NCBI GenBank assembly: GCA_046758705.1
Contig: JBHIAT010000048.1
Span: 1-21,629 of the forward strand
Reading direction: 5' to 3'
DNA from: Candidatus Bipolaricaulia bacterium
GTDB taxonomy: Bacteria; Bipolaricaulota; Bipolaricaulia; JBHIAT01
Length of the DNA: 21,629 bases
Shown: positions 1-17,341 of the stretch, piece after piece
Layout of the letters: every line of letters starts with the position of its first letter
Position numbering within the stretch: the stretch's first letter is position 1
Translations under genes and position numbers: made by a program
The notes under the pieces: model-generated
What the model was told of the DNA's origin: nothing
What the model saw: the letters and a program-made list of their open reading frames with translations, nothing else
Databases searched by the model: none

Positions 1-970
1 TGAACCCCACCAACGCCCCGTAGAACGCCGGCGTTCCACTCGAGGCGATGATCGTGATCTGCGGTGCATAGATCACCCCGCGTACCTCTGAGGTCCCTTG
101 GACTTCGATGGTGACACTCCCTGCCCCTAATACATACAAGATCAACGAACAGTCACCGGTGTCAGAGATGTCCCCAGCATCGGCACAGCGGCCGAGCTCT
201 GCTCCTCCTTTGATGGTCACATTCCCGTTCACGAACAGCCGGACGTCTCCGTCGATGACCACCTCCACGTTGCCGTTGAGGTTGATCCCATCGTAGAGGT
301 AGGTGGTCGGCCTGGTGAGATCGCCGTTGTTATCGGAGAGCGTGCCTCCAGAGCTGAGGGTTTCGCCGCTGTGATCCTCATCGTAGAGGTTGGGCGCGAT
401 GATCGATGGGAGTTCCGGAAGCAGCAAGATATCCCCGTTGATGGTGACACTGCCGGTTGTTTGGATCCCCCCATCCTCATCGGCAGCGACGGCAGTCGAG
501 AAGTACCTATCAACAGCTGAGGCGAAGAAGATGAGCGTCTGCCGCAGTATCCGCCGTGCTCCCTGGAACTCACCTTGAGAGAGGATTTGATAGGTACCAG
601 CCTCCGACTTGATGATAAACACCTCAGCACCGACCATTTGATCGTCTGGGACGCCCTCGTTCGCCAGCAGGTAGCCAGGGAGCTGGTAAGGGGAAGGAAC
701 CCAGCTCGGGGCGTTGACCGTTGCCGAAGCGAAGTCACCCTGTTGGGCGGCGATGTACTGTGTGGCGCGGTTGATACCGGCTTTGGCGATATACAGGGAT
801 CGTTCGCTGTCCTGGGTCAGAGAGCTGAACCGATGACTGTTGAGGGAGATACTGAAGTAGCCGATTCCTAGCAGTGTGATCAACAACAGGACGAAGAAAG
901 TGACAACCAGCGCCGATCCCCGGTCTTCTTCTCCCGTAAGATGTTTTCCTCTCAATCTCCGCATGCGCAT
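1..970 (-). CDS. PilX N-terminal domain protein (type IV pilus minor-pilin-like); 3' end runs off the window
   Basis: Not in the ORF track. Hand translation from ATG 970 gives MRMRRLRGKHLTGEEDRGSALVVTFFVLLLITLLGIGYFSISLNSHRFSSLTQDSERSLYIAKAGINRA..., with a prepilin-like G|SALVV hydrophobic helix and a PilX-like 'LYIAKAGI' motif. The same frame near the window edge reads ...SEVRGVIYAPQITIIASSGTPAFYGALVGF. About 120-500 was not translated codon by codon. Confidence 0.8.
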   Translation of the reverse strand, partial: MRMRRLRGKHLTGEEDRGSALVVTFFVLLLITLLGIGYFSISLNSHRFSSLTQDSERSLYIAKAGINRATQYIAAQQGDFASATVNAPSWVPSPYQLPGYLLANEGVPDDQMVGAEVFIIKSEAGTYQILSQGEFQGARRILRQTLIFFASAVDRYFSTAVAADEDGGIQTTGSVTINGDILLLPELPSIIAPNLYDEDHSGETLSSGGTLSDNNGDLTRPTTYLYDGINLNGNVEVVIDGDVRLFVNGNVTIKGGAELGRCADAGDISDTGDCSLILYVLGAGSVTIEVQGTSEVRGVIYAPQITIIASSGTPAFYGALVGF

Positions 971-1004
971 AGCGTACTTCCAATGGGAGAACATGGCAGG
1001 GTGC

Positions 1005-1853
1005 TCACCGAATACCCGACCCGTTAAAGGTTTGGGATACTCTGTCTTTTGTGTGTTGATACAGATCTTCAGGAATCGATTCGCGCACATCAACAAGGGT
1101 TTGTAATAATTGTAGATGAATTCTCCGAACTTTCTTGCTATCTTTGCTCAATCCGTCTTGCTCTGACAGGTCTACCAGCTCGGTGAGTATGCCGATCGCC
1201 TCCACCGTCTCAGTCAGACTTTGTTTCAGCTCCTTGCGTTGTGCGGTAAGCCGGTTTGCGTTCCGATACACTCGTCTGAACCTCTCAGTCAACCTTGCGA
1301 TCCTGATCTTATCCTGGATGGGAAGTTTGAAGGTCTCAAGCTCCTTGTTCCTGATCTTGCTGACATTCACAGCGGTGGGATCCATCCTCGTCTTGAGGAT
1401 CTCAAGGATGCCTTGCGCTTCGATATTCAACGCTTTGGTAATCTCCTCGATCGTCGGCAACCTGCCGCTCTCCTGGTAGAGTTTTCCGATGATCTGGCTC
1501 ACTTGATGATCCAACCGCTGAACCCATGCGGGCATCCCTGCAAGCGGGTTCTCATCGTGAAGGTGGTTCACAATTTCACGGGTGATCAAGTGGGCAGCAT
1601 GGGATCTAAACCCATTTCCTGAGATGGGGTGGGCGTGGTAGATCGCATTCAATAAGCCGATGTATCCTCTGGGTATCAGGTCGTCAACGGGTCGCTGGGG
1701 TATGACCCAATCCCTGGCGATCGATTCGATCAAATCCCGATGGGCTATGACCATCGCCCGTTCGAGCCCTGGATCTCGGCTTTCCCTGAGCTTCTGAATA
1801 GGTCGCTGGATCGGTTCACCTGCGCCTGTGACTGAGATTTCTATCTCTCTCAT
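1005..1853 (-). CDS. Atypical SigB/SigF-like sigma factor: regions 2 and 3 present, region-4 HTH replaced by a helical tail
   Basis: DDLIPRGYIGLLNAI...HLITREI (region 2) and GRLPTIEEITKALNI (region 3). Aligns with 19652-20437 up to LPIQDKIRIA/LPIEDRIGIA. ATG 1853 chosen from the SD AGAGGT 7 nt upstream. Confidence 0.8.
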   Translation of the reverse strand: MREIEISVTGAGEPIQRPIQKLRESRDPGLERAMVIAHRDLIESIARDWVIPQRPVDDLIPRGYIGLLNAIYHAHPISGNGFRSHAAHLITREIVNHLHDENPLAGMPAWVQRLDHQVSQIIGKLYQESGRLPTIEEITKALNIEAQGILEILKTRMDPTAVNVSKIRNKELETFKLPIQDKIRIARLTERFRRVYRNANRLTAQRKELKQSLTETVEAIGILTELVDLSEQDGLSKDSKKVRRIHLQLLQTLVDVRESIPEDLYQHTKDRVSQTFNGSGIR

Positions 1854-1858
1854 GAAGA

Positions 1859-2401
1859 TCACCTCTCTATCCTGTTAAGTCGCTCTCCCAGACGGGCATT
1901 TTCGAGGAGCAGAGATACCTGGCCCGCGATCGTCATCAAAAGATACCGATCTCTGAGGGTGAAACTCGGTTTGCCGTTCTTATTGATCAACTCGATCGCT
2001 CCGATCGTCCGATCCTTTAACTTGATCGGAACACAGAGGATGTTTTGGGTGTGGTAGTCGATTGCCTGATCGATCTCTCCGTAAAATCTGGGGTCCTCCC
2101 TCGGATCCGGGATGATGAGCGGCTCCCCATGGCGAATCACCCAACCCACGACTCCCTCGGCCAGCGGCATCTTCCTTCCCTGGAGCTGCTCCTGCTTCTC
2201 TCCGGTGACTGCCCGGAAGACCAGCCGATCCTCCCGATCCGGATCCTTGATCACGATCGAGCTGGCGTCCGCGTTGAGAACCTCATCGATGAGCTGGAGG
2301 GTCGTTTCAAGGATTTCGTCGGATGACCGGGAGGCTTCCATCAGCCTGCCGATCCTGGTGAAGATCACCCACGGGGCTTCGTAGACGCCTATATCTTCCA
2401 T
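1859..2401 (-). CDS. Stand-alone GAF domain protein
   Basis: EGVVGWV...PLIIPD...DPRF, NILCVPI...IGAIELINK...F...LLENARL. SD GGAGG upstream. No output domain. Confidence 0.9.
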   Translation of the reverse strand: MEDIGVYEAPWVIFTRIGRLMEASRSSDEILETTLQLIDEVLNADASSIVIKDPDREDRLVFRAVTGEKQEQLQGRKMPLAEGVVGWVIRHGEPLIIPDPREDPRFYGEIDQAIDYHTQNILCVPIKLKDRTIGAIELINKNGKPSFTLRDRYLLMTIAGQVSLLLENARLGERLNRIER

Positions 2402-2422
2402 TGGACATCCCTCCCAGGGGGT

Positions 2423-2845
2423 CTATGAGTTCACGTCCCAGATCGGCTTTCGCGGCTGCCCGGGTATCCTGATGATTTGGAGCCGATCCGGATCTTGGTG
2501 GCAATCCCGATTTCGGAGGTGATAGCGGATCTCACTTTTGATCAGCTGAGCCGCGTAGGGACGGAACGCGATGCCCGTGCGGGGATCGAAGTTATAGATC
2601 GCGTTGATCAATCCGATATAACCGGCTTCCATGAGCTCCTCACGGTCCTCGTCCTCGTTCTCACCGGCGCGTGAAAATCTGTCCACGATCGACTTGATCA
2701 AATCCATATTTCTCTTGACAATCGCCTGCTCGATCTCCACGTCAGCACTCTCTGAGAGCTGGTGAAGCAACTCCTCCGTCTTTTGACCGTTGTACTTTCC
2801 GTTGTACCTTGACCTTGATCTGTCGATGTCGATGTTGATCGTCAT
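2423..2845 (-). CDS. Truncated sigma-70 family protein (region 1.2/2 only), SigB/F-like
   Basis: EELMEAGYIGLINAIYNFDPRTGIAFRPYAAQLIKSEIRYHLR...IIRIP, then a stop at 140 aa. SD CAGGAG upstream. The next gene starts 21 bp later. Confidence 0.8.
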   Translation of the reverse strand: MTINIDIDRSRSRYNGKYNGQKTEELLHQLSESADVEIEQAIVKRNMDLIKSIVDRFSRAGENEDEDREELMEAGYIGLINAIYNFDPRTGIAFRPYAAQLIKSEIRYHLRNRDCHQDPDRLQIIRIPGQPRKPIWDVNS

Positions 2846-2874
2846 GGCAATCTCCTGGTTGAAGACCGCTACCG

Positions 2875-3849
2875 CTATCTGCCAAACCGGATGGTGGCCG
2901 ACAATCGATGGGTATCCGGGAGATCTGGATGGGCGAGGAACGCGTAATTGATCTCGAAGGAGCCACTGACGAGGCTGGCTCCCGCCGTTAACGGCAGCTG
3001 AGCGAGGTCCTCAAGTTGAAATGCCAGAAACTTGTCTAAGGGACCGTAGATGCCGCCTCGCAGCCCGAGAGGGCCGAGCCACAACTCAGCTCCCGCATGG
3101 AGGGTTCGATCCCGTTCGTCGAGGAGGTGATCGATGTCCATGGCCAGGGTCAACGAAGCAAGCTTCTGAACGCCGACCTTCAAGGATGCGCCTGCGCGAA
3201 CGTTTTGACCCCAGACTTCGGTGTGGCCACTTTGGTATTCGATCTCAGCTCCACTCACATTCTCCATGAGGGCACCGAAGCGCAACGGCCCCAGTTTGAT
3301 CATCCCGGCGGCGTCGATGGAGAACGTCCCGGTATCCTCATCGAGCGTCTCCACGTGATACGCTTTGCCGCGAATCCCGAACGACAGTAACGGGCCGAAG
3401 GCGACCCCAAACGATGCGATCGCCGCGTGATTGGTATAATCGAACTCCCCTTGCTCCACCCCGAGTTCGTCCCGCTGGGTCAAGCCCGGCGCGGTCAGCT
3501 GGAGCAGTCCAAAGCCGATATTCCGCTGCGCGTAGCCGAGGGCGCCATAGTTAGCCGCGTTGAACTGGTTGCTAGACAGGGAGGTGAGGCCGGAACCTTT
3601 CAGGAAGCCCAGCCCTGCCGGGTTGTAAAACAGGGCGTTCTCATCATCGGCCAATCCGACGAACGCTCCACCCATTCCCAGCGGCCTGGCCCCCATCCCG
3701 ATGCTGAATAACGCCCCCACGTTGACCAACTCCTCCTCCTGAGCGATCCCCTGAACCGGGGAGAGAGGCAGGATCGCGATTGACAGGACCAGCATCAGCG
3801 CGACCCGGTTTAGGGGTGAGCGGATTCTGGTTCTCATTCTGATTTTCAT
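2875..3849 (-). CDS. PorV/PorQ (UPF0164, FadL-like) outer-membrane beta-barrel protein
   Basis: Signal peptide, then the family signature GMGARPLGMGGAFVGLADDENALFYNPAGL. Amphipathic beta strands; C-terminus THRLSATIRF. ATG 3849 follows SD GAGGAGG. Confidence 0.85.
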   Translation of the reverse strand: MKIRMRTRIRSPLNRVALMLVLSIAILPLSPVQGIAQEEELVNVGALFSIGMGARPLGMGGAFVGLADDENALFYNPAGLGFLKGSGLTSLSSNQFNAANYGALGYAQRNIGFGLLQLTAPGLTQRDELGVEQGEFDYTNHAAIASFGVAFGPLLSFGIRGKAYHVETLDEDTGTFSIDAAGMIKLGPLRFGALMENVSGAEIEYQSGHTEVWGQNVRAGASLKVGVQKLASLTLAMDIDHLLDERDRTLHAGAELWLGPLGLRGGIYGPLDKFLAFQLEDLAQLPLTAGASLVSGSFEINYAFLAHPDLPDTHRLSATIRFGR

Positions 3850-3863
3850 GGTTATCGTCCTCC

Positions 3864-6800
3864 TCACTTGTTAACGACGAATCTTCCGATCTCAGACCGG
3901 ATGACGTTGCCGTCCTCATCGACCGCAACGATCAGGTAGATATACAGCCCATTTGCCAGGGACCTGCCGTAGTTATCCCGGAGCTCCCATCTGCCAATCC
4001 CAGGGTATTCGTTGCCCATTGGATCCAGATCGTCCTCAAACAGCAGCGCTCCGCTCACGTTGTAGATCCTGAGCTTGGCCGAAGCGATCCCCTGAGGCAG
4101 GGAGTAGTAGAAGGTCGTCCCGGCCCAACCGACCGGGTTGGGGCCGTTCACGACGATCAGCGATCCTTCGACGACAAACGGCACCTCCTCTGTCTGGAGG
4201 TTCCCCATACGGTCGGCGACGGAGATCCTGGCCGTGTAGTCGCCACTGAGCAGTTTCTCGATGGGTTCGGCGATCCACAAGGGTTCACCTGCCTCATCGA
4301 CGTCCGTATAGTAGAAGAAGTCGCTTTTGTCCATGACAACGGCGCCGGAGTGATCGATGTACTGGACTGAGACGCTTTCCTCATCGACGCCGCTCCCCGG
4401 ATCATAGGCTTTGAACCGCGCCTCCGGCCGGAACCGCTGGTAGAAGTCCCGCTCATCTCCAATTCCGACCTCGACGAACTCGGGAGGTCGGCTATCGACC
4501 AGCACCGCGTAGTCGCTGAAGTGATCGACCGAAACGGTGACGGTGTGAAGCTCGGTATCCACTTGATCGACCCCGACAAACTGCCATCCTTCATCTCCAG
4601 TGAAGAAGTAGATGGCCAGCTTGGTCGGATCCTCTGTCTGCTTCGGGTCATAAGCCAAGGTCAGTTTCGCGGGTTTGTCCGGAGAAAATGTCAGCCCGTC
4701 CGGATAGAAGCGCCACATCGAACTGACCGGGTTGAGTCCCTGTGTCTCTACCGATGAACTCTCCGGATCGCCATAGTCTTTCGGCGTGATGGATATCATC
4801 ACATCTGTGTCGAGAGCGCCCGCTGCGATCTCGATCTCGCTCGCCTCGTTCTTGACCGTCCCACCCGTCTGAGCCGATATGTTCTCGACGACGAACGACT
4901 CGGTTCGCAAGCTTGCGTTGCCCGCGTTGTCGGTGGCCACGAGGTAGATCGTTCCCATCCCCTCGAACGCCCCGAGTTCAACGGCCTGCTGATAGCGATA
5001 ATCTGCCTCTGTGATGGTGGTTTCAACGCTGTCCACCGTCTGCCCGCCTTCATCCTCGACCGTGAGCTGGATGAGAACCTGAGGATGCGCCTCCACGATG
5101 TGCAAGCCGACGGTCAATTGGGTATCGACCAGCTCCGCTGCGAATTCGCCCAACTGCGGCGGTGTGGTATCGATCAGGATCTTGACGCCCTCGGACGGAT
5201 CCTCTATGTTGCCGTTCTGATCCCACGCCCTGCTTCTCACCCAGTACTCCCCTTCCTCGACCGGAACCATCGGGAGCGTGTAGCTCCACGCCTCGGTCCC
5301 TTGGCTCTCCAACCAGGTCGCTTGGATAACCCATTCGCTGCCGTTCCAGTAGGCGTCGTCGAACTTCCTAAGGCTTATCTCGACCTTCTGCAAACCACTG
5401 AAGTTATCGAAGGCCGTCCCACTGATCTCAACATTTTCGAGCGTGTTGGACGCAAAGCCATCCTCAGGAGCGGTGATCTCAGAATGGGGGAGTTCTCCGT
5501 CGACTTTGACCCGGTAGTGGATGGTATCACTCCAGGCTCCCGGTTGGTTGTACTTCACTCTGAGATGGAGATAGGAGATACCGTTCTCTACATCGGTGAA
5601 GGTGAGCTGATCGCTGGTCGTGTTGACTTTCAGCTCTGGAACGGTCCCCTCGCTCTGATCGAACCGGTAGCTGTATCCCTCTACCTCGACGTTGTCAACG
5701 GGAACCTGCCAGCTGAACTTCACATCGTCGCTGCCGTACCAACGCGTCTGATCCGGATGAGTGCTGCTGTCAACGATCGGGCTGGGTGCGATGAAGAACG
5801 TGTACATCTCGCTGGATTCCAGCCCGCCGAGATCGACCGCGTAGACCGTGACGGTGACATCCCCGCCGACATCGGTATGGGGCTCATCCGGCGGGTATTC
5901 ATAGGTGTAACCGAACGGGACAGCGGATGGAACAGGCTTGGTGATCGAGATTCCGTTGATCTGGATATCGACCGTGCTCTCATCCACCCCCTTCCCCTCG
6001 TCCGTGACGGTGACGGTGATCGGCTCGCGTGTATCACCGGTTGCGTTATCACCGCTGCTCGAATCGGTGTTGGGGGTCTGAATCAGGATCGTCGGGCCGA
6101 GGCTGTCCACAAAGAAAGCTCCAGCGACCGCGCTCGCCGCGCTCCGGTTGCCCGCAACGTCTTGGGCGACCGCATACAGGTAGTTGTTCCCCTGGTTTAG
6201 CTGGACGTTCTGGAACAGATAATCTCCATCGACTATTGTGCTTTGAGTGCCCAGGCGCTCCGCTTCCACCTCGTCGCTGAGATCCCGATCCAAGAACAGC
6301 TCGACATGATCCACATCGCCTGCCGTGGCAGCGTCGGGGGTCACCTGGATGTCCGCAAGGTCATAGCTCAGCTCTGAACCCTCGGCTACGGCCGCCCCAT
6401 CCTTCAACACCACCAGGGCGGTCGGTGCCCCTGGAGGTATGGTATCGACGATGAAGGACAGCTGGCCGGCCACCCCAGAGTTGCCCGTGAGGTCGGCGTA
6501 CGCGACACTCACCTCGACTATGCCGTCTGAAAGCGGAGTGGATGGGGCATAGCTCAGATCCGTCTCGGTGATCGTGGCCTCCCCGGTGACGTCGCTTCCG
6601 TTCACCGTCAGCTGGACACTGGCCGTATCGATTCCCGAGCCGTCACCGTCGTCGAAGGTTGCGGAGAGGGTCGGTTGCGCATCGCTGGTATAGATGTCCT
6701 GCGCCGGGCTGGTGAACTGGACGGTGGGAACGACGGTGTCCAGGAGCAGCATGTCGGTTAACCGATTGGTGTTGCCGTATATATCCTTAGACAGCGCCTC

Positions 6801-9800
6801 GAACACATTGGTGCCCTCGGTCAGGGTGATGCCGCTGTAACTGAAGCCCTGAGTCTGCACACCCTGACTCACCCCGCCGATCAGCAGCTCGATCGACTCG
6901 AGATCCGGATCGAGGGGTGGGGTCACGATGACATCCACGTTGCTGACGTTGGTGGGCGTGGTGATCACGTTCTCTGTCCCGCTGGCCCGGTATACGGTGG
7001 CTTGGGGCGGGGTCACATCCGCGTCGACGGTGATGGCGAACGGCGCTGATGGATCGCTCTTGCCGATCACGTTCTCGGCCCTGGCGGTGATCTGATACTC
7101 ACCCGAGCTGGTTTCCTCCGGAAGACTCACCGTGATCAGGTATCCCCCGGTTTCATCGGCAAATTCCGTGCCGACCTCAACCCCGGTGAACAGGATCGTC
7201 ACGATCGTTCCGATCTCGGCTTGCCCGTTCACCTCGAAACTCTTGCCGACTTTGTCGTCGCCCGGGCTGACCACGCCGGTGATCGTCGGGACTCCAGGAA
7301 GGCTGTTGCTCACCCCGACCAAAGCCTCTGCGGTGCCTGAGTTGCCCGCCAGGTCCGTGGCAGTGAACGCGACCTTATAAACGCCCTCGCCGACGAGCTG
7401 GTTGGCGTCGTTGCGGCCGTTCCAGTCGAAGCTGTAATTCCCCGCCTCCTGGGACGCCCCGAACAGGATCCCTTTCACCTGGTTCTGGTTCCCATCCAGG
7501 ATCTTGATGAACAGCTTATTCACAGACTCTTTCAGTGTATAGTTGACCGTAGTCCTCCGTTTCTCAAGCGGATAGTCCGGGAGGGTGGTGAACGTCCGGG
7601 GGTCGGTGGTGGCACTGATCTCGGGCGCCGTGGTGTCAACCGTGAGGTTACGGCTGACCCCCTCGGTCTCGGTGCCTTTGCTGGCGGTCACCTCGATCTG
7701 ATTGACGCCTTCGATCAGGGTGCCGTCGGCAAGACTGAGGGTGAGCGAGAAGCTCCCGCTGCCGTCGATAGTCGCCGGACCGACGGCCGTGCCGTTGTTG
7801 TTCACGGTCAATGTCGCCCCGGTGTCCACCCGGCCGCTTACCTCAAGCTCCGTCGCCGCGAAATATCCATCCTGTGACGGGGTATCCACACGGAGCAGAC
7901 GGGATTCGTAAACGAGGAACTCACTTTCAAATGAGGTTTCGAGGAAATAGACCTCGTCCTTGCCGTCCCGGTTCAAGTCGGCCAGGACGACCGGAGCTTC
8001 CCACGCTCCGCCGCCGGTGACGCGTTCTCCCTGGTAGATGTTCTGATACCCGTTCGTCGTCCTCTTCCACAGGTAAAATTGATGGTAATCTTGTCCGTCC
8101 GTGGGGTCCCACCAGTTGAAGTTGATACCGATCTCAACCGCTCCGTCTCCATCGATATCTCCGATGTCGAAGTTGCGGTTTCGATAATCCCACCGGTTTA
8201 TATCCAGTTCTGGAGGAGGCGGCGTCAACACTTCCCCGATCTCCAGGGTGTTGGCCGCGGTCAGATGAAGCTCCCAGATCCGCTCCGATGTCTCCCAACT
8301 CGAACCGTTGTAGAGCACCTCATCCCGTCCGTCTCCATCGATATCGATCACCTTCGGCCAGCGGAAGTCGTTGGCTTTCCCCTGGTCGATGTCGCTTCGC
8401 AACTCTTCGACCAACTGGCCCGAGTTCGAGTTATAACCGTAGAGGTACAACGTGTTGTTCGATCCGGTGATGATCTCGTGTTGCCCGTCACCATCGAAGT
8501 CCCCGATCGCGGTTCCCCGCAACCAACCATCCAACCCGTCTACCTGATACGACAGTGCGAAATCGACTCCGGTCCACTGGAAACCCAACAGCTTTCCATC
8601 CCGAGTGGAGACGACGATATCCTTGTAGGGATTGGTAGCATCCACATCCCCAACGCTCAATGACCACCAGTCCCAGTCCGCCTCGCCGATCTCTCCACTG
8701 AACCACAACGGGTTGAATCCGTTTCCGTTCCACGCGAAGATACGGATGTAAAGCGGGTTGTAGTTCCCGTTCCAATCTCCGAGTTGCAGGATGATCACTT
8801 CGTTCAATCCGTCGCCGTTGACATCCTCAACCAGCACTTGCCTGAAATCCGAACCGAAGACCTCCTGGTAATACCACTCGGTGATGAACTTCCCGCTGAG
8901 CTCATCCCACTCGGTAAGCACAATATCACGCCAGCCGAGGAAGACCAGCTCTTCTGTGCCATCGTTATCCGCGTCTCCCCGGACCGCGGAGGTTGTCCAC
9001 ACGCCCGCGATCTCTCCCGGTTGCGTGATGACCCCTTCCGGTTGCAGTCCGCCGATGGTGGGGGTGATCTCCCCCGCCACCTCGTTGGTCACCTGGATGG
9101 TCCCAGGGGGAGACTTGGGGCTCTCGTTCCCGGCGGAATCGAAAGTGGTCCCCTCCACGACGGTCTTCCCTACGGTGACCGATATGGGCCATGCAAAGCG
9201 TCCTTCGGCGTCCGCGACCGTATCTTGTATCTCCCTGGCTTGGTTGGACCAGGTGATGTACAGTCGGACCAGACCGTTGGCCAGCGCTCCGTGCCCCCGG
9301 ACCTCAAAGTCGGTGATCAACTTGTTAATGTTGTAGGTGGTGAAGTCAAGCTGCGGCGCTTCAGGCGGGGTGGTGTCGATGAGGAAGTGGTTGTTACTGA
9401 CCACCTCGATCGCATTGCCCGCCCGGTCGGCCCCGGCGACGGTGACGGTGGCCTCACCGTCCAGGTAGTGGGTACCGTCCGCTGGGTTGGTGGTATAGGT
9501 GTAGCTGTAGGTCTTCGCATCCACCGTCGTCATCGTTCCACCGGCGATATCGTTAGAACCGGGTTGATCGATGTCGATCGTCGGGGCCGCCCCGAGGGGC
9601 TCATCGGCGGTGGCCATAATCTCCAGCGCTCCGGCCTTCACCGGCGATCCCGGTTGATAGCTCAACTGCACCGTTGGTCCTGCTGTGTCTACCTCGAAGG
9701 AATACTGGGTCTGGTTTGCGGCCGTCCCCAGCAGATCCTGGGTGTTCACCGTTACGGTGATCGTCCCATCGCTGTATGACGTCGCGGGTGTATATGTGTA

Positions 9801-12800
9801 GGTATAACTGGCTGGATCTCCGGATGGGGTCGGCTTCGTGATCGCGTTGCCGTTGACCCGGATCTCCACGCTGGTCTCGTCCACCCCTTTCCCGTCATCC
9901 GCGACGGTCACGACGATCGACTCTTTCGGGTTGTTCGTGTAGAGATCCCCGGTATCGGGATCGGTGTTGGGGGTCTGAATCAGGATCGTCGGGCCGAGGC
10001 TGTCCACGAACAGGTTGAACGATGAACTCGAACCGCTGGAGTTGCCTGCCTGGTCGATGGCCACGGCGGTGAGCACGTTGCTTCCCTGATCCAGCGAAAT
10101 GGCCGTAAACGAGTAGTAACCGTCGACCACAGTATTCTGGGTCCCTAAGCTCACCCCATCGCTGAACAGTTCCACTCGATCCACATCATCGGCCGTCGTC
10201 GCCTCAGGGAGCACCTTGACGTTCACCACACTGTACGACAGCTCGGAATCCGCCGCCACCGACATTCCATCGGCAGGATTGAGCACCTCTAAGCTCGACG
10301 GTGAATTCGGTGGCACGGTATCGATGACGAAACTCAGCTGGCCGGTGGAGCCCGAGTTGCCCGCCCGGTCGGCGTAATCGACAGCGACGTTTACCGCCCC
10401 GTCGGCCAGGTTGCTGAGCGGCGTGTAACTGAGGCCGGTTGCCGTAATCAGGGCATCCCCGGTCACCTCGACCCCGTTCACCTGCAGCACGATGCTGCTG
10501 GTATCGATTCCCGAGCCGCTCCCGTCGCCGAAGGCGGCCGAGATGGCCGGCCGATTGTTGCTGATATAGTCACTCTGACTGGGGTTGGTGAACTGGACGC
10601 TCGGCGCGATCGTGTCGAGCATCAGAGTATCCGTGAGGCTGTCGGTGTTACCGTAGATGTCCATGGCGATCGCTTCAAACGCGTTACTTCCCTCGGATAG
10701 GGTGACCCCGCTGAACGTGAACCCGGCAGTCTGGGTTCCAAGGCTGATGCCATCGAGCGTGAGTTTGATCGACGCCAGATCACTGTCCGCAGGTGAGGTG
10801 ATCACCGCATCCACAGGGCTGACGTTGGTCGGACCGGTTACGGCGTTCTGGGTGCCGCTTTCCTTGTAGGTGATGGCTGTTGGTGCATTCACCGTCGTAT
10901 CAGCCACGATCGTGAATGGGCCTGACGGGTCGCTTTCACCGATCACGTTTTTGGCGGTGGCCTTGATCTGATAGGAACCCGGCCCGGTGCCTGTGGGCAG
11001 GTTGGCCTCCATGTCATAGTCGCCGTTATCATCGGCGGATCCGGTGCCGATTTCGACCGTACTGGGGCCGAAGTAGATGGCCACCGTCGTCCCCGCCTCG
11101 GCCTGCCCGGTTACATGAAAGCTCTGGCCTACGGTGTTATCGCTGCTGGGGCTGGTGACCCCGGTGATCGTCGGAACCGTGGGCGGGCTGTTATCCACCC
11201 ACACCAGCAGCTCTTGGGTTCCCTGATTGCCCGCCAAGTCTGTGACGGTGAACGAGACCTTGTAAGCGCCCTCGCTGACGAGCTGGTTGGCGTCGTTGCG
11301 GCCGTTCCAGTCGAAGCTGTAACTCCCCGCCTGCCGGGACGCCCCGAACAGGATCCCCTTCACCTGGTTCTGGTTCCCATCCAGGATCTTGATGAACAGC
11401 CTGTCAGCGTCTTCACCCAGGGTATAGCTGATCGCCGTCTTGCTGTTCTCCGGGGGATAACCGGAGAGGGTGGTGAACGTCCGGGGGTCGGCGGTGGCGT
11501 CGATCTGCGGCGCCGTGTTGTCAATCGTGACGTTGTGGGTGACCCCCTCGGTCTCGGCGCCTTTGCTCGCCGCTACCTCGATCTGGTTGGCGCCTTCGAT
11601 CAGGGTGCCGGCGGCAAGGCTGAGGGTGAGCGAGAAGTTCCCGCTGCCGTCGATGGTCGCCGGGCCGACGGCCGTGCCGTTGTTGTTCACGGTCAACGTC
11701 GCCCCGGTGTCCACCCGACCGCTCACCTCGAGCTCCGTCGCCGCTAAGTAGACATCGCCCGTCGGGTTATCCACGCGGAGCAGTCGGGCCTCATAGACAT
11801 ATATATCGCCCTGATAAAAGTAGTAGATCTCATCCTTGCTGTTGGGGTTCAGATCAACTAACGCGACCGGTTTATCCCACTCATCGTACCTCAGGGTCTC
11901 CCCTTGATAGATCTGTTGGAACCCGTTCGCGGTCTTCCTCCATAAGTGAAGGCGATTATACCATTGGCTATCGGTGTTGCTCCACCAGCTGAAGTGGATC
12001 CCGATTTCGATCTCGCCGTCCCCATCAAGGTCCCCGATGCTGAATTGGTGGTTTCGGTAATCCCATGTGTTCATCCCCGCTTCCGGAGGCGAAGGGGTCA
12101 TCACATCCCCGATCTCCACGGTCCCGTCGGGGTTCAGATGAAGCTCCCGCACCCGGTCGCCCGTGTTCCAGTCCGAACTGCTGAACAGGGCCTCGTCCCG
12201 TCCATCCCCATCGATGTCGAGCGCTTGGGCCCAGTGAAAATCCCCAAGTTCCCCATTATAACCGGGGATATCTATATTTCCATCTAACTTCAACTCCTCC
12301 ACCAGGCCGCCGAACGCCGAGTCATAACCGTATATATAGAGGATATGGTTGCGTCCGGTCATGATCTCGTTCTTCCCGTCGCCATCGAAGTCCCCGACCA
12401 CCGTCCCTCGGAGGTCGTTCTCCAGACCGGTGATCTGGTGAAACAGTTTAAAATCGACCCCCGTCCATTGGTAGACGAGCAACTGCCCGTCCCGGGTGGA
12501 GACGACCAGGTCGTTGAACGGGACATCGGTATCGACGTTCCCGACGCTCAACGACTGCCAATCCCAGTCGATCTGCCCAATCTCATCGCTGAACCAGAGT
12601 TGAATGAATCCGTTTCCATTCCATTGGTAGATACGCAGATAGAGTGGATAGTGACTGCCGGTCCAATTCCCCCGCTGGAGGGCGATCAACTCGTTCAATC
12701 CGTCGCCGTTGACATCTTCGATGAGCAGTTGATTGAACCCCTCACCGGAGACATTTTGCCAATAGTCTTCAAATCGATACTCCGCTTTGAGGTCATCCCA

Positions 12801-13064
12801 TCGGACGATCCGGATGTTGTGCCAATCGGGATAGACCAGCTCCCGGGCGCCATCGTTGTCCACATCCCCGACCGCAAAGTGATTGGTCCAGCCGGCGTTG
12901 CTGATCGTCGCCTTCTGGACGATCACCCCTTCCTCCTGAAGGCCGGACAGCGTCGGGGTGATTGCGGCGAAGCCGGAACACCCTATACCGATCAGAAGAA
13001 GAACCGAAAGGATGAATACCGACGATGATCCGACTCTAACTCTAAGAGATTGAAGAGACGTCAT
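3864..13064 (-). CDS. Giant secreted surface protein/adhesin (~3066 aa): two FG-GAP/VCBS propellers, many bacterial Ig-like domains, two FlgD-Ig domains, a ZU5-like region and a T9SS type A-like C-terminal domain
   Basis: N-terminal hydrophobic signal. Repeated DxDxDG motifs (GDVDNDG, EDVNGDG, GDFDGDG, DIDGDG, GDLDGDG). 'D.AGN...DT..P' Ig repeats. FDWNGRND...EG.YKV (FlgD-Ig). C-terminal NGPNP...KLRIYNVSGALL...WELRD...LANGLYIYLI. ATG 13064 follows SD AAGGAGGT. Confidence 0.88.
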   Translation of the reverse strand: MTSLQSLRVRVGSSSVFILSVLLLIGIGCSGFAAITPTLSGLQEEGVIVQKATISNAGWTNHFAVGDVDNDGARELVYPDWHNIRIVRWDDLKAEYRFEDYWQNVSGEGFNQLLIEDVNGDGLNELIALQRGNWTGSHYPLYLRIYQWNGNGFIQLWFSDEIGQIDWDWQSLSVGNVDTDVPFNDLVVSTRDGQLLVYQWTGVDFKLFHQITGLENDLRGTVVGDFDGDGKNEIMTGRNHILYIYGYDSAFGGLVEELKLDGNIDIPGYNGELGDFHWAQALDIDGDGRDEALFSSSDWNTGDRVRELHLNPDGTVEIGDVMTPSPPEAGMNTWDYRNHQFSIGDLDGDGEIEIGIHFSWWSNTDSQWYNRLHLWRKTANGFQQIYQGETLRYDEWDKPVALVDLNPNSKDEIYYFYQGDIYVYEARLLRVDNPTGDVYLAATELEVSGRVDTGATLTVNNNGTAVGPATIDGSGNFSLTLSLAAGTLIEGANQIEVAASKGAETEGVTHNVTIDNTAPQIDATADPRTFTTLSGYPPENSKTAISYTLGEDADRLFIKILDGNQNQVKGILFGASRQAGSYSFDWNGRNDANQLVSEGAYKVSFTVTDLAGNQGTQELLVWVDNSPPTVPTITGVTSPSSDNTVGQSFHVTGQAEAGTTVAIYFGPSTVEIGTGSADDNGDYDMEANLPTGTGPGSYQIKATAKNVIGESDPSGPFTIVADTTVNAPTAITYKESGTQNAVTGPTNVSPVDAVITSPADSDLASIKLTLDGISLGTQTAGFTFSGVTLSEGSNAFEAIAMDIYGNTDSLTDTLMLDTIAPSVQFTNPSQSDYISNNRPAISAAFGDGSGSGIDTSSIVLQVNGVEVTGDALITATGLSYTPLSNLADGAVNVAVDYADRAGNSGSTGQLSFVIDTVPPNSPSSLEVLNPADGMSVAADSELSYSVVNVKVLPEATTADDVDRVELFSDGVSLGTQNTVVDGYYSFTAISLDQGSNVLTAVAIDQAGNSSGSSSSFNLFVDSLGPTILIQTPNTDPDTGDLYTNNPKESIVVTVADDGKGVDETSVEIRVNGNAITKPTPSGDPASYTYTYTPATSYSDGTITVTVNTQDLLGTAANQTQYSFEVDTAGPTVQLSYQPGSPVKAGALEIMATADEPLGAAPTIDIDQPGSNDIAGGTMTTVDAKTYSYTYTTNPADGTHYLDGEATVTVAGADRAGNAIEVVSNNHFLIDTTPPEAPQLDFTTYNINKLITDFEVRGHGALANGLVRLYITWSNQAREIQDTVADAEGRFAWPISVTVGKTVVEGTTFDSAGNESPKSPPGTIQVTNEVAGEITPTIGGLQPEGVITQPGEIAGVWTTSAVRGDADNDGTEELVFLGWRDIVLTEWDELSGKFITEWYYQEVFGSDFRQVLVEDVNGDGLNEVIILQLGDWNGNYNPLYIRIFAWNGNGFNPLWFSGEIGEADWDWWSLSVGDVDATNPYKDIVVSTRDGKLLGFQWTGVDFALSYQVDGLDGWLRGTAIGDFDGDGQHEIITGSNNTLYLYGYNSNSGQLVEELRSDIDQGKANDFRWPKVIDIDGDGRDEVLYNGSSWETSERIWELHLTAANTLEIGEVLTPPPPELDINRWDYRNRNFDIGDIDGDGAVEIGINFNWWDPTDGQDYHQFYLWKRTTNGYQNIYQGERVTGGGAWEAPVVLADLNRDGKDEVYFLETSFESEFLVYESRLLRVDTPSQDGYFAATELEVSGRVDTGATLTVNNNGTAVGPATIDGSGSFSLTLSLADGTLIEGVNQIEVTASKGTETEGVSRNLTVDTTAPEISATTDPRTFTTLPDYPLEKRRTTVNYTLKESVNKLFIKILDGNQNQVKGILFGASQEAGNYSFDWNGRNDANQLVGEGVYKVAFTATDLAGNSGTAEALVGVSNSLPGVPTITGVVSPGDDKVGKSFEVNGQAEIGTIVTILFTGVEVGTEFADETGGYLITVSLPEETSSGEYQITARAENVIGKSDPSAPFAITVDADVTPPQATVYRASGTENVITTPTNVSNVDVIVTPPLDPDLESIELLIGGVSQGVQTQGFSYSGITLTEGTNVFEALSKDIYGNTNRLTDMLLLDTVVPTVQFTSPAQDIYTSDAQPTLSATFDDGDGSGIDTASVQLTVNGSDVTGEATITETDLSYAPSTPLSDGIVEVSVAYADLTGNSGVAGQLSFIVDTIPPGAPTALVVLKDGAAVAEGSELSYDLADIQVTPDAATAGDVDHVELFLDRDLSDEVEAERLGTQSTIVDGDYLFQNVQLNQGNNYLYAVAQDVAGNRSAASAVAGAFFVDSLGPTILIQTPNTDSSSGDNATGDTREPITVTVTDEGKGVDESTVDIQINGISITKPVPSAVPFGYTYEYPPDEPHTDVGGDVTVTVYAVDLGGLESSEMYTFFIAPSPIVDSSTHPDQTRWYGSDDVKFSWQVPVDNVEVEGYSYRFDQSEGTVPELKVNTTSDQLTFTDVENGISYLHLRVKYNQPGAWSDTIHYRVKVDGELPHSEITAPEDGFASNTLENVEISGTAFDNFSGLQKVEISLRKFDDAYWNGSEWVIQATWLESQGTEAWSYTLPMVPVEEGEYWVRSRAWDQNGNIEDPSEGVKILIDTTPPQLGEFAAELVDTQLTVGLHIVEAHPQVLIQLTVEDEGGQTVDSVETTITEADYRYQQAVELGAFEGMGTIYLVATDNAGNASLRTESFVVENISAQTGGTVKNEASEIEIAAGALDTDVMISITPKDYGDPESSSVETQGLNPVSSMWRFYPDGLTFSPDKPAKLTLAYDPKQTEDPTKLAIYFFTGDEGWQFVGVDQVDTELHTVTVSVDHFSDYAVLVDSRPPEFVEVGIGDERDFYQRFRPEARFKAYDPGSGVDEESVSVQYIDHSGAVVMDKSDFFYYTDVDEAGEPLWIAEPIEKLLSGDYTARISVADRMGNLQTEEVPFVVEGSLIVVNGPNPVGWAGTTFYYSLPQGIASAKLRIYNVSGALLFEDDLDPMGNEYPGIGRWELRDNYGRSLANGLYIYLIVAVDEDGNVIRSEIGRFVVNK
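5790..9068 (-). repeat. Copy 2 of the ~3.3-kb intragenic duplication
   Basis: Runs from ITPTIGGLQPEGVI to YTFFI. 6063-6110 is identical to 9960-10007 (48 bp). Distal boundary approximate. Confidence 0.9.
9690..12962 (-). repeat. Copy 1 of a ~3.3-kb intragenic duplication in the giant gene
   Basis: Runs from ITPTLSGLQEEGVI to YSFEV. Colinear with copy 2 at an offset of about 3.89 kb. Distal boundary approximate. Confidence 0.9.
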
Positions 13065-13141
13065 ATTCAGAGATACCTCCTTCTTCAATTTCGCGCATTT
13101 AGTCTCTGAATGAAGGTTATTCCCGTTTTGTTTGGAGAATA

Positions 13142-13921: not shown

Positions 13922-16456
13922 ATGGAAAGACCGGCTGACGACCTGGAAGCACAACTGGAACAACGAACGCGGGAATTACAGGCTAGCAAAGCCCGCTTCT
14001 GCAATATCATAGAAAAGAATGCTGATGGCATCATCATTGTGGACAGAAATGGAATGGTGCGTTTTGTCAATCCGGCTGCGGAAGCCCTCTTGGACCGCAA
14101 GGCAAAAGAACTCCTGGGTGAATTATTCGGCTTTCCGGTGGTGGCCGGTGAAACCACGGAGATTGACATTATTCGCAGAGATGGAGCAACAACCGTAGCG
14201 GAAATGCGCGTGGTGGAAACCGAATGGGAAGGTGAAATAGCCTACCTCGCATCGCTTCGAGATATCACTGATCGCAAGCAGGTCGAGGAGGAGTTAAAAT
14301 CAGCCCAGGAATACACCCGGGACCTGATTGATAGTTCTCTGGTTATGATCATCTCCGTAGACCAGGACCGCAGGATCGTTGAGTTCAACCAGGCAGCCCA
14401 GGAAACGTTCGGCTACAGTAAAGCGGAACTCCTCGGCCAGCCCATCGACATCCTCTATGCCGATCCAGCGGAAGGGTCGAAGGTTCATGAAACGATCCGG
14501 AGAACCGGTCGATTCACCGGCGAAATCGCCAACAAACGGAAGAATGGTGAGATATTTCCCTCGTTGCTCGCCGCTTCTGTTCTACGAGATGCGAGCGGTG
14601 AATTTTTGGGGGTCATGGGGGTCTCTCAGGACATCACTGAGCGCAAGCGCTTTGAAGCGCAACTGGTCCACTTGGCAAACCGCGACCCGCTCACCGGTCT
14701 TTTCAACCGGCGTCGCTTTCAGGAGGAGTTGGAGCGTCAGTTCGCGCAGGCACGGCGCTACAGGACCCAGGGGGCGCTGTTGTTTCTGGATCTGGACAGC
14801 TTTAAGGACATCAATGACAGCCTCGGTCACCAAGCCGGGGATGAACTGCTTACGAGTCTGGCCGCCCTGCTGAGGGAAAGGCTACGGGAGACCGACATCC
14901 TGGCGCGCCTGGGCGGCGACGAGTTCGCCATCCTCCTGCCGCACACTGAGGCGGATCAGGCACAGGCGGTCGCCGAGGATCTTCTGGAGACGGTGCGCTA
15001 TCACACCGTCGTGATCGACGAACACCCGATTGGCATCACGACCAGCATCGGTATCGCCCTGTTTCCCGACCACAACATCACAGTGGAGGAGTTACTCACC
15101 CGCGCTGATCTAGCGATGTACCATGCAAAGGAAAATGGCCACGACCTTTTTAGCATCTATACCCCCGATAGGGACTGGCAAGCACAGATTGAATCCAAGC
15201 TCACCTGGGCAAGACGCATCCGCGAAGCGTTGGAACAGGATCGCTTGCTGCTGTATGCCCAACCCATCCTCGACCTCAACAGCAATCAGATCTCCCAATA
15301 TGAGTTGTTGCTGCGCATGGCGGGCGAAGGGGGCGAGATCATCCTCCCCAGCGCCTTTCTCAACGTCGCCGAGCGGGTTGGCCTGATCCACGATATCGAC
15401 CGCTGGGTGGTGTACCAGGCGATCCATCTCATCGCTGACCATCACTCAGCTGGCCGAGACCTGTGTCTGGCAGTCAACCTCTCCGCCAGAGCCTTCGCAG
15501 ACAGAGAACTGCTGCCGATGATCCAGCGCGAACTGGCCGCCACCTCCATCAACCCGGCAAGCCTGATGCTGGAGATCACCGAAACCGCTACCATTGCCGA
15601 CATCAACCAGGCCCAGAAGTTCCTTAACGCCCTGAAGGCGCTGGGTTGCCGGTTTGCGCTTGACGATTTCGGCGTTGGGTTTTCCTCGTTCTATCACCTC
15701 AAGCACCTGCCCGTGGAATACCTGAAGATCGACGGCGGCTTTATCCGTAACCTGCGCCGCGACCCCGCGGATCAGCAATTGGTCAAGGCCATGGTAGCCA
15801 TGGCTCGTGGGCTAGGCAAACAGACCATCACCGAGCACGTCGGTGACGAAGAGACCTTGCAGCTGTTGCGGGAATATGGGGTGGATTACGCGCAAGGCAA
15901 CCATATCGGCCGGCCCGCTGCAGTGTCTGAGGTGTTGTCATCTAATTTTCGCCCGAAAAAACCGGAATACCTCTTCCACTCATTGGAAGAGGAGATTATG
16001 GCTGAGGTTGAGGTTGGAAAGCTTAAGATTCTGCTGGTCGAAGACAATCCTGATGACATCGAGATCACCAAGCGGGCGCTGAAGAAGAGCGAGCTCGACG
16101 ATGATCTGCTGGTCATCCAGGATGGTGAAGAGGCGCTCAATTTCCTTCATAAACGAGAAAAACACCGAGATGCGCCCCGGCCCGATTTGATCCTGCTCGA
16201 TCTGAACCTGCCCAAGATAGACGGCCGAGAGGTGCTGGTCCAGATCAAGCGGGATGAAAAACTCCGGCAAATCCCGGTGATCGTGTTGACCGTCTCGAAG
16301 TACGAGAAAGATATAGCGAAAGCCTACAACAGCGGGGCGAGCAGCTACATCACCAAACCGGCCGACTTCAGAGGGTTTGTGAAGATCATCAAGATCGTCC
16401 GGGACTATTGGAGGATCGTTAAACTGTCCTCCGAAAGTGATGACGTCAGATCATAG
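13922..16456 (+). CDS. PAS-PAS-GGDEF-EAL diguanylate cyclase/phosphodiesterase with C-terminal receiver domain
   Basis: Two PAS/PAC domains (DITDRK, DITERK), DPLTGLFNRR, RETD I-site, intact GGDEF. EAL-domain motifs ELLLR, EITE, DDFG, KID, QG. Rcp1-like REC: LLVEDN...LLDLNLP...VLT...YITKP. Confidence 0.95.
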   Translation: MERPADDLEAQLEQRTRELQASKARFCNIIEKNADGIIIVDRNGMVRFVNPAAEALLDRKAKELLGELFGFPVVAGETTEIDIIRRDGATTVAEMRVVETEWEGEIAYLASLRDITDRKQVEEELKSAQEYTRDLIDSSLVMIISVDQDRRIVEFNQAAQETFGYSKAELLGQPIDILYADPAEGSKVHETIRRTGRFTGEIANKRKNGEIFPSLLAASVLRDASGEFLGVMGVSQDITERKRFEAQLVHLANRDPLTGLFNRRRFQEELERQFAQARRYRTQGALLFLDLDSFKDINDSLGHQAGDELLTSLAALLRERLRETDILARLGGDEFAILLPHTEADQAQAVAEDLLETVRYHTVVIDEHPIGITTSIGIALFPDHNITVEELLTRADLAMYHAKENGHDLFSIYTPDRDWQAQIESKLTWARRIREALEQDRLLLYAQPILDLNSNQISQYELLLRMAGEGGEIILPSAFLNVAERVGLIHDIDRWVVYQAIHLIADHHSAGRDLCLAVNLSARAFADRELLPMIQRELAATSINPASLMLEITETATIADINQAQKFLNALKALGCRFALDDFGVGFSSFYHLKHLPVEYLKIDGGFIRNLRRDPADQQLVKAMVAMARGLGKQTITEHVGDEETLQLLREYGVDYAQGNHIGRPAAVSEVLSSNFRPKKPEYLFHSLEEEIMAEVEVGKLKILLVEDNPDDIEITKRALKKSELDDDLLVIQDGEEALNFLHKREKHRDAPRPDLILLDLNLPKIDGREVLVQIKRDEKLRQIPVIVLTVSKYEKDIAKAYNSGASSYITKPADFRGFVKIIKIVRDYWRIVKLSSESDDVRS
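15970..16000 (+). promoter_or_regulatory. Internal SD and in-frame ATG for the REC domain, with the SD partly inside a 9-bp hairpin
   Basis: CCTCTTCCA-ctcat-TGGAAGAGG perfect stem (15970-15992), GAGGAG at 15989-15994, ATG at 15998 in frame with 13922. Confidence 0.5.
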
Positions 16457-16508: not shown

Positions 16509-16598
16509 AGGGGAGGAACGGAGTGATGGTGGCAGGCATCGGCCTCATCGTGGGAATTTCAGCGCTCCTGACATTCCTCGGCCGGTGGGCGTTAATCG
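16509..16598 (+). pseudogene. Relic of the N-terminal part of a CPBP gene paralogous to 20827-21627
   Basis: 90-bp ungapped match to 20903-20992 (74/90 by hand count). GRNGVMVAGIGLIVGISALLTFLGRWALI vs GRKGVMAAGIGLIVAISVFLTSLSKWALI. Confidence 0.8.
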
Positions 16599-17023
16599 AG
16601 CTCGTAATCGATACCCCTGATCACTTGGAGTTGTGGAAGGGGATAGTGATCGACGTTGTTGGTCAGGAGAGGTACCCCAAGCGCCTCAGCGGTAGCGGCA
16701 ATGATCCCATCAGCGAGTCCCACGGTGATGCCACGGGAGCGCAACTGTTTCAGCAACTTCCCGGCTCGGCGCGCCACAGTGATATCCACCTCGATAGAGA
16801 CAAGACCATCAAGAAAGGCCTGGGTGGCGGCCTCCTCCTGAGGTCGCATTCCCATATAGACCTCAAGATGAGTGATCACACTGATAGCCGCCAGCCCTCC
16901 TGTAAAGCGGGTGAAATGATCTAAAAGCGTCTTTGCATATTGATGGCCGCGTAGGTAATCGATCACAATGTCCGTATCTAAAAGACAGGTGATCGGAAGT
17001 TCTTCCTGTTCCACTTCAGCCAT
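16592..17023 (-). CDS. vapC: PIN-domain VapC-family toxin
   Basis: LLDTDIVID...ISVITHLEV...LADGIIAATA...LLTNNVDHY. Probable start ATG 17023 overlaps the end of the antitoxin gene. Confidence 0.92.
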   Translation of the reverse strand: MAEVEQEELPITCLLDTDIVIDYLRGHQYAKTLLDHFTRFTGGLAAISVITHLEVYMGMRPQEEAATQAFLDGLVSIEVDITVARRAGKLLKQLRSRGITVGLADGIIAATAEALGVPLLTNNVDHYPLPQLQVIRGIDYELD

Positions 17024-17312: not shown

Positions 17313-17341
17313 CTTCTTAATCCTCCTTTTTATCATGGTTT

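Follow-up and report, generated by a model that had tools for sequence, protein, structure and literature searches.

The 21,629 nucleotides of contig JBHIAT010000048.1 from a Candidatus Bipolaricaulia bacterium, hereafter the window, were analyzed as contig C48 of a 3.7-Mb assembly that comprises 319 contigs and is 93.9% complete. Its reverse strand carries three consecutive small open reading frames (ORFs) named A, B and C, the cassette that is the subject of this work (Table 1). ORF A encodes sigma factor region 2 without the downstream regions, ORF B a stand-alone GAF domain, and ORF C a sigma-like protein that has regions 2 and 3, lacks region 4 and ends in a helical tail. This order of a sigma2-only protein, a GAF protein and a sigma without region 4 had been proposed in the initial annotation and was borne out by Pfam, NCBIfam and profile alignment. 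The motif GYIGL[LI]NAI, said there to be shared, is indeed common to A, C and the full-length SigB/F-like sigma encoded at the other end of the window, which served as reference paralogue. The A-B-C cassette appears to be an unfused member of a set of region-4-less sigma modules spread over the genome, as developed below.

The three ORFs are tightly packed in a same-strand array whose order is a giant 3074-aa gene, a 330-aa gene, A, B, C and a DUF7305 gene. The end of the 330-aa gene is spaced by 29 nt from the start of A, the junction between B and C is a GTGA overlap of start and stop codons, and the C stop codon is found 10 nt from the ATG of the downstream gene. Shine-Dalgarno-like sequences precede all three start codons: AGGAG for A at a distance of 7 nt, GGGAGGG for B, and AGAGGTGATC for C, whose ATG at 1853 it precedes by 4 nt. 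Note that the protein database entry for ORF C is the 282-aa form initiated at this ATG. The Shine-Dalgarno-like sequences, open frames and tight spacing (21 nt and the GTGA overlap) that had been invoked for the cassette are thus real. The TAG stop of A (2423-2425) and the ATG of B are in one frame, 24 nt apart, and a single stop separates the sigma2 and GAF coding segments; no variant at this TAG was found among the differences listed for four metagenome runs.

ORF A matches Sigma70_r2 only in Pfam (residues 43-114; E 6.7e-11; 42.3 bits for a cut-off of 24), with no Sigma70 region 3 or region 4 at E ≤ 1. Its product ends about 10 residues past the IRIP motif that marks the border of regions 2.4 and 3.0, and the SigF/SigBFG models of NCBIfam cover it over model positions ~3-101 only. 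Most sigma2 columns conserved in 71 full-length sigmas are retained and the structures nearest to its Atlas model are sigma2 domains. The nearest relatives of A are full-length copies (48-49% identity); the ratio of non-synonymous to synonymous substitution rates (dN/dS) against the full-length sigma is 0.36 over 100 codons.

The GAF domain of ORF B is recognized at residues 25-167 by both GAF_2 (E 1.7e-21; 77.3 bits) and GAF (E 2.4e-21; 77.1 bits). Its closest relatives, all N-terminal GAF domains at 51-53% identity, are found in the same genome: one belongs to a 469-aa GAF-GGDEF protein and two belong to GAF-GAF-HD-GYP proteins. The N-termini of these paralogues align with that of B, which stops where the helix begins that leads into GGDEF or GAF-HD-GYP in the paralogues. 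Relatives outside the genome reach 36-40% identity at best, and a word-index search of 5.8 billion proteins retrieved no close orthologue. The two GAF-GAF-HD-GYP paralogues closest to B each adjoin a sigma gene, on contigs C9 and C309. The C9 locus (C9:456-6052) contains a paralogue of the 330-aa gene next to A, a 410-aa ORF without Pfam match, the GAF-GAF-HD-GYP gene and a divergent group-1/2-like sigma with regions 1.2 to 4.

The sigma part of ORF C scores above the Pfam cut-offs (28 bits for Sigma70_r2, cut-off 24; 30.2 bits for Sigma70_r3, cut-off 25.3), and neither Sigma70_r4 nor r4_2 is found at E ≤ 1, as is the case for A. The reference sigma of the window matches regions 2 (E 1.1e-20; 73.6 bits), 4 (E 3.5e-09) and 3 (E 4.2e-06). 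The NCBIfam model TIGR02980 aligns with C at positions 6-138 of its 227 and with the full-length sigma at 4-226. Its whole-protein cut-off of 234.35 bits is missed by A (56.3), C (63.3) and also by the full-length paralogue (184.2); judged by these scores, the sigmas of this lineage are divergent as a whole. A 34-row profile of full-length sigmas aligns with C residues 15-198 (probability 99.9%, E 2.3e-31), the alignment ending at the start of region 4.1. In the AlphaFold2 (AF2) model of C, built with an alignment restricted to sigma2-3 (mean predicted local distance difference test score (pLDDT) 82.4), sigma2 and sigma3 domains are followed by one long helix spanning residues 182-236 and by a hairpin of helices (240-282). 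Its sigma2 superimposes on solved sigma factors with Z scores of 11-14.4 and a root-mean-square deviation of 2.2-3.6 over 89-98 residues. The nearest relatives of C are the region-4-less proteins encoded on contigs C46 (E 3.9e-40) and C58 (E 2.9e-34), followed by the full-length sigma of the window (E 8.3e-34). The initial annotation had regarded both A and C as shortened paralogues of the latter; by these values C is nearer to the fused proteins. The segment of C best kept relative to these paralogues is region 3.2/4.1, where 20 of 35 residues are identical to C58 and 18 of 35 to C46, the same number as to the C85 protein.

Beyond this segment the similarity stops. The C tail alone (residues 194-285) aligns with the full-length sigma profile in hhalign with a probability of 0.2% (E 0.3), and used as a query it matches paralogues over its first 33-35 residues only, save for one weak match to C85 (79 residues, 37%, E 2.5e-4). 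It is modeled as three helices (182-236, 240-258 and 265-282; pLDDT 66-77, with no alignment depth there), whose structural look-alikes are only generic coiled-coil hairpins. A region 4 hidden by a frameshift was looked for and rejected: the other two frames of 940-1340 are filled with stops, those of the tail resemble neither sigma4 nor GAF, and seven paralogues used as tblastn queries matched only the in-frame 3.2 linker. Likewise, a derivation of the tail from the coiled-coil linker of the fused paralogues or from their first GAF helix was not supported, the local alignment scores being no higher than those of 500 shuffles (z -0.8 to 0.4). Pfam, hhalign and the search of the other frames therefore agree that the tail has no region 4 helix-turn-helix (HTH), the finding that the initial annotation had named as decisive against its proposal had it come out otherwise.

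At the columns conserved in the 71 full-length sigmas, the core-binding region 2.1/2.2 is mostly retained in the region-4-less set. Several columns of region 2.3/2.4 are altered: Y82 is replaced by H in C and C46, G89 and H93 are changed in all members and R96 in C, C46 and C85. Relative to its full-length relatives, C has the substitutions Y82H, G89R, H93N and R96H, and the IKIPR stretch at the border of regions 2.4 and 3.0 reads AGMPAW. These changes, together with a region 2 score of 28 bits for C versus 73.6 for the full-length sigma, speak against the possibility that C is a real sigma that dispenses with the -35 contact, acting on extended -10-type promoters or with an activator and maybe driving the downstream pilin-like genes, A being a side product or a competitor. 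In its favor, sigma2, sigma3 and the 3.2 linker, which works inside RNA polymerase (RNAP), are all present in C, and a full-length paralogue, on C258, occupies an equivalent place between genes for a T2SSE ATPase and a prepilin-type protein. In Escherichia coli, sigma70 deprived of region 4 can still initiate at extended -10 promoters, and the phage T4 protein gp55 functions without this region. We hold such a role for C to be clearly improbable.

A two-subunit sigma of the SigO-RsoA kind, as the initial annotation also envisaged, would require that A and C complement each other, or that either one pairs with an HTH protein encoded elsewhere. The adjacency of two partial sigma genes is what points in this direction. 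Both A and C, however, carry sigma2 and neither carries sigma4; Pfam finds no receiver domain or sigma4 in any of the three proteins, and B is a GAF protein without a DNA-binding family match at E ≤ 1. As the cassette proteins in no combination restore -35 recognition, this split-sigma proposal is not supported and we consider it a very long shot.

A search of the genome with A and C identified nine SigB/F-like modules, while the other genomes of the phylum with any SigB/F-like match have 1-2 copies each. Ordinary full-length sigmas are four (the one of the window and those on contigs C112, C258 and C110), and a further N-terminal sigma piece is found at the end of contig C309. The proteins encoded on C58, C46 and C85 lack the region 4.2 HTH and keep, in the alignment, sigma2, sigma3, the 3.2 linker and helix 4.1, an architecture that C shares. 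In C58 and C46 this module is fused to GAF and enzyme domains (Table 1); HD, GYP and GGDEF motifs are present and, because of them, both fusions look like working enzymes. Their sigma-GAF-HD-GYP architecture was not found among the 150 best database matches or among the matches listed for the 183 other genomes of the phylum. The maximum-likelihood topology groups A and C with the fused region-4-less proteins in both trees computed, one of 22 rows and one of 77 rows (the nine modules of this genome and the matches ranked P0006-P0074; P0001, P0004, P0005 and P0009, which belong to the same genome, were left out). One partner-switching set was identified, on contig C34, consisting of two STAS proteins, a 145-aa RsbW-like kinase encoded at C34:19330-19767 and a SpoIIE phosphatase; it has no adjoining sigma gene.

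Table 1. Features of the A-B-C cassette, of the related fused or region-4-less proteins of the same genome and of the other genes of the window. Coordinates refer to the window unless a contig is given.
Feature	Coordinates	Strand	Description
ORF A	2423-2845	(-)	140 aa, ATG start; N-terminal leader and sigma region 2 only
A-B spacer	2402-2422	(-)	21 nt, carries Shine-Dalgarno-like GGGAGGG
ORF B	1859-2401	(-)	180 aa, ATG start; stand-alone GAF domain
ORF C	1005-1862	(-)	285 aa (GTG start) or 282 aa (ATG at 1853)
ORF C sigma region 2	1551-1751	(-)	residues 38-104; Sigma70_r2 1.9e-06; pLDDT 80-96
ORF C sigma region 3	1359-1505	(-)	residues 120-168; Sigma70_r3 5.1e-07; pLDDT 90-97; profile alignment
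ORF C region 3.2 linker and start of 4.1	1269-1367	(-)	residues 166-198, KIRNKELETFKLPIQDKIRIA...
ORF C orphan helical tail	1008-1268	(-)	residues 199-285, ~87 aa; stop at 1005-1007
C58 fusion	C58:2655-4970	(-)	771 aa; Sigma70_r2, r3, 2 GAF and HD_5 (HD-GYP type)
C46 fusion	C46:16376-20206	(-)	1276 aa; Sigma70_r2, 4 GAF stretches, HD_5 and GGDEF
C85 protein			387 aa; weak r2 and r3, C-terminus without assigned family
Full-length SigB/F-like sigma	19652-20437	(-)	261 aa; reference paralogue
Downstream gene	2-994	(-)	DUF7305 (1e-11), N-terminal hydrophobic segment, cut by contig end
Upstream gene	2875-3867	(-)	330 aa, weak UPF0164 match
Giant gene	3864-13088	(-)	3074 aa; two similar halves, each with FG-GAP/VCBS-like repeats then Ig-like domains
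PAS-GGDEF-EAL-REC gene	13922-16456	(+)	~2 kb beyond the REC-PAS-HD-GYP gene
KaiB-domain gene	17879-18247	(+)	near the full-length sigma locus
REC-PAS-HD-GYP gene	18326-19651	(-)	HDVGK and GSGYP motifs present

The organism is the sole member of its family among the genomes compared. In 40 genomes labeled "same class" only ordinary sigma matches were found, in frames of 178-353 aa (a match is present in 24 of 41 genomes when its own is included). Across 184 genomes of the phylum, 108, again including its own, have a SigB/F-like match; the frames listed are 166-548 aa long, none of them a long sigma-GAF fusion, and 24 matches lie beyond those listed. The word-index search retrieved the query alone for A, and for C the query and one sigma-GGDEF protein. 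Phmmer with C against 1.84 billion representatives yielded 3452 matches at E ≤ 1e-3, only the query and C46 of the same genome reaching E ≤ 1e-30, and none of the 150 matches listed aligns past C residue 252. The commonest long relatives of C make up a widespread family of ~410-490-aa sigma-GGDEF proteins, in which regions 2, 3 and 4 precede a GGDEF domain. Among the 61 long matches scanned from those 150, a C-terminal GGDEF is present in 43 and region 4 in 60 at E ≤ 1e-5, the remaining one having a weak region 4 at 1.4e-5. ORF C has neither region 4 nor a GGDEF domain in Pfam, unlike this family, and falls outside the separate clade that the sigma-GGDEF proteins form (44 rows, support 100). 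One such cluster in the Atlas bears the automatic name "Diguanylate cyclase, GGDEF/Sigma-70 region 2/3/4" and its commonest phylum is Armatimonadota. No study of sigma-GGDEF or sigma-GAF-HD-GYP fusions was found in the open-access literature searched. Short proteins with only sigma2, or sigma2 and sigma3, were considered as precedents and rejected: most are encoded on contigs of 660-1500 nt, have C-termini that resemble junk or frameshift products, or are cut by contig ends. Atlas clusters of 115-157-aa proteins with region 2 only may also be fragments and were not used as support.

A further question is whether A, B and C are maintained genes. They could be recombination leftovers, truncated at the 3' end, of sigma and GAF-enzyme paralogues, non-functional or barely functional and riding on the transcript of the adhesin/pilin array; recent truncation would explain why their frames have stayed open. 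A number of observations weigh in this direction or against functional cassette genes. Each ORF looks like a larger type of paralogue that has lost its 3' part: regions 3 and 4 are missing from A, the GGDEF or GAF-HD-GYP part of its 51-53% identical paralogues from B, and region 4.2 or the GAF-enzyme part from C. None of the databases searched yielded an orthologue for any of the three ORFs, so that conservation of the cassette is unsupported, and region-4-less sigma matches elsewhere, including P0050, P0122 and P0070, resemble fragments or frameshift products. The GC content drops to 0.39-0.46 at 1015-1194, the last ~60 codons of C, compared to 0.5-0.65 around, and the tail has a GC content at third codon positions (GC3) of 0.50 versus 0.66-0.73 elsewhere and a weak codon score (0.04); because of these three properties the distal tail may have arisen recently by extension into DNA that was formerly non-coding. 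The sigma family has recently been duplicated in this genome: the C110, C112 and C258 sigmas are recent duplicates (80-85% identical) and a DDE transposase with an IS240-type domain is encoded directly downstream of the C110 sigma (C110:8-1510). The synonymous divergence (dS) of C from its nearest paralogues is saturated (>2). The support for grouping A and C with the fused proteins is weak, with an SH-like approximate likelihood ratio test (SH-aLRT) value of 91 in the 77-row tree and bootstrap/SH-aLRT values of 42/93 and 66/75 in the 22-row tree. The single nucleotide polymorphisms among the strain differences listed, two synonymous and three non-synonymous in C and none in A or B, are too few to favor either side; 95 further differences lie beyond those listed.

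Other data weigh against debris. Such an origin needs three successive 3' truncations, each sparing the N-terminus of the next gene, its Shine-Dalgarno-like sequence and a spacing of at most 21 nt. Of the three possible frames, the annotated one has the best codon score in A, in B and in both the sigma part and the tail of C. The tail frame is open for ~87 codons while the other two are stop-filled, and its product is predicted to be helical. Identity to the nearest paralogues is no more than 37-53% for the three proteins, which makes them old lineages, and dN/dS along those paths is 0.2-0.36. Elsewhere the genome plainly uses region-4-less modules, fused in frame to enzyme domains with their catalytic motifs. 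Comparison of the C46 and C85 modules over 233 codons gave a dN of 0.145 and a dS of 0.451, i.e., a dN/dS of 0.32, similar to the 0.22-0.41 found for the full-length trio; by this measure the region-4-less module family is under purifying selection. The open frames, the in-frame codon scores and the dN/dS values of 0.36 for A and 0.32 for the module family thus oppose long-standing decay and sustain the earlier view that the cassette is not a product of simple decay. The stretch was found, as contigs only, in four DNA runs of one hydrothermal-vent study and in no RNA run among those listed. A minor strain variant in runs X1 and X3 has an in-frame 6-nt deletion at 1824, near the C N-terminus, and low-depth contigs of runs X3 and X4, diverged by ~10%, span 936-1218, i.e., the C tail and its junction with the next gene, without gaps. 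Taken as a whole, we consider truncation leftovers to be the main rival explanation, rather unlikely but still deserving serious weight.

The giant protein, whose N-terminus resembles a signal peptide, is probably a surface adhesin, and its gene overlaps by 4 nt that of the 330-aa protein, which we take to resemble an outer-membrane barrel. The family of the latter is present in 157 of 184 genomes of the class, and a sigma or GAF gene was found within 1.5 kb at none of the 11 best loci of its homologues. The DUF7305 gene product presumably resembles a PilX-type minor pilin. At C258:126-2276 the full-length SigB/F paralogue is flanked by genes for a T2SSE (PilB-like) ATPase and for a protein with a prepilin-type N-methylation motif, and this order of a sigma followed by a pilin gene matches that of C and the DUF7305 gene, if the latter is indeed pilin-like. 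A regular-expression search for the prepilin motif near sigma genes of relatives was negative at all 19 loci, C258 of the same genome being the only case. A consensus promoter and terminator scan of 1-4200 gave no excess over shuffles, no Rfam families were detected in the window, and a repeat scan of 900-3000 gave only four short matches of a size expected by chance. At the opposite end of the window the stop codon of the full-length sigma directly adjoins the start of the REC-PAS-HD-GYP gene (19651/19652). With the C9 and C309 loci, this makes a recurrent association of sigma genes with GAF or HD-GYP genes, which counts in favor of the explanation given below. An ORF pair found between these two regions (16592-17336, reverse strand), in which a 154-aa PIN-domain ORF overlaps an upstream 106-aa ORF without Pfam match, looks like a VapBC-type toxin-antitoxin system.

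Our best explanation, which we advance tentatively and somewhat short of an even chance, treats A and C as sigma-like regulators under constraint that have no region 4, would dock on core RNAP or an RsbW-type anti-sigma and would be coupled to GAF and cyclic di-GMP (c-di-GMP) signaling. A, B and C, three intact single-module genes in a long same-strand array, belong to an expansion of SigB/F-type modules specific to this genome, part of which has lost the -35-binding HTH (region 4.2). The remaining sigma2-sigma3-3.2 module is joined to second-messenger domains, by fusion in C58 and C46 and by apparent operon linkage in the cassette. A and C would accordingly not be classical promoter-reading sigmas. 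We infer that the retained sigma2, sigma3 and 3.2 surfaces would let them dock either on core RNAP or on the only RsbW-type anti-sigma kinase of the genome, and that the full-length SigB/F paralogues would thereby be tuned in their activity; docking without the usual promoter reading fits the conservation of regions 2.1/2.2 and 3.2/4.1 and the alteration of the 2.3/2.4 columns. SpoIIAB contacts sigmaF in regions 2.1, 3.1 and 4.1, parts that are retained here. B would supply ligand sensing, B and C, possibly in contact, might constitute a non-covalent version of the C58 and C46 sigma-GAF fusions, and A might be a minimal sigma2 competitor or adaptor. The decoy or core-competitor roles under GAF control that the initial annotation inferred are candidate functions. 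The cassette is read as an unfused sigma-GAF form because anti-sigma capture (PhyR) and c-di-GMP action on sigmaWhiG (RsiG) are precedents.

A broader version of the same explanation is that a group-3 sigma module without the -35 HTH has been turned into a signaling domain, which tethers or gates GAF-controlled c-di-GMP enzymes and small adaptors on core RNAP or on an RsbW-type anti-sigma. It would be a SigB/F counterpart of PhyR mimicry that links partner switching to second-messenger turnover, A-B-C being its unfused three-protein form in an adhesin/pilin operon. We regard this generalization as doubtful. To our knowledge, sigma mimicry is known so far from one case of the extracytoplasmic function (ECF) type, PhyR. 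If the explanation is correct, this would be a second, independent case, in which a SigB/F-type sigma2-sigma3 module is combined with GAF, HD-GYP and GGDEF domains; the sigma fold would be reused more widely as a protein-interaction module and there would be a direct physical link between c-di-GMP signaling and the transcription machinery or partner-switching regulators. The sigma-GGDEF fusions that keep region 4 are cloneable targets for studying the action of a second messenger on a sigma in cis. If A, B and C are debris, the cassette documents module shedding and recombination in a rapidly expanding regulator family.

Several known systems share traits with the cassette. SigO-RsoA of Bacillus subtilis resembles it in that sigma functions are split over two small adjoining genes, but its subunits are complementary and region 4 is present, whereas A and C duplicate sigma2 and have no region 4. 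Phage T4 gp55 is also a sigma2-like protein without -35 recognition; it depends on gp33 and the sliding clamp, while A and C are clear members of the SigB/F family. The sigma-GGDEF fusions have in common with the cassette the joining of a SigB/F-like sigma to the c-di-GMP machinery. They keep region 4, in contrast to C, C46, C58 and C85, which are devoid of region 4.2, and C in addition has no enzyme domain. In Streptomyces, c-di-GMP reportedly controls the group-3 sigma WhiG through RsiG. The sigma is complete in that system and the nucleotide bridges it to a dedicated anti-sigma, whereas C is without region 4; the structure of RsiG-sigmaWhiG (6pfj) matches the sigma2 of C with a Z score of 12.7. 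PhyR, of the general stress response of alphaproteobacteria, is a sigma mimic that captures the anti-sigma NepR from the real sigma (PMC4598750). It couples to a sensor a sigma-like domain that is no longer a sigma and acts by protein binding, as the cassette would. PhyR combines an ECF-type sigma2, sigma4 and a receiver in one chain, while the domain is here of the group-3 (SigB/F) type and without sigma4: the cassette keeps sigma2 with or without sigma3 and 3.2, and its GAF sensor has a gene of its own, whereas in the paralogues it follows the sigma module in the same chain.

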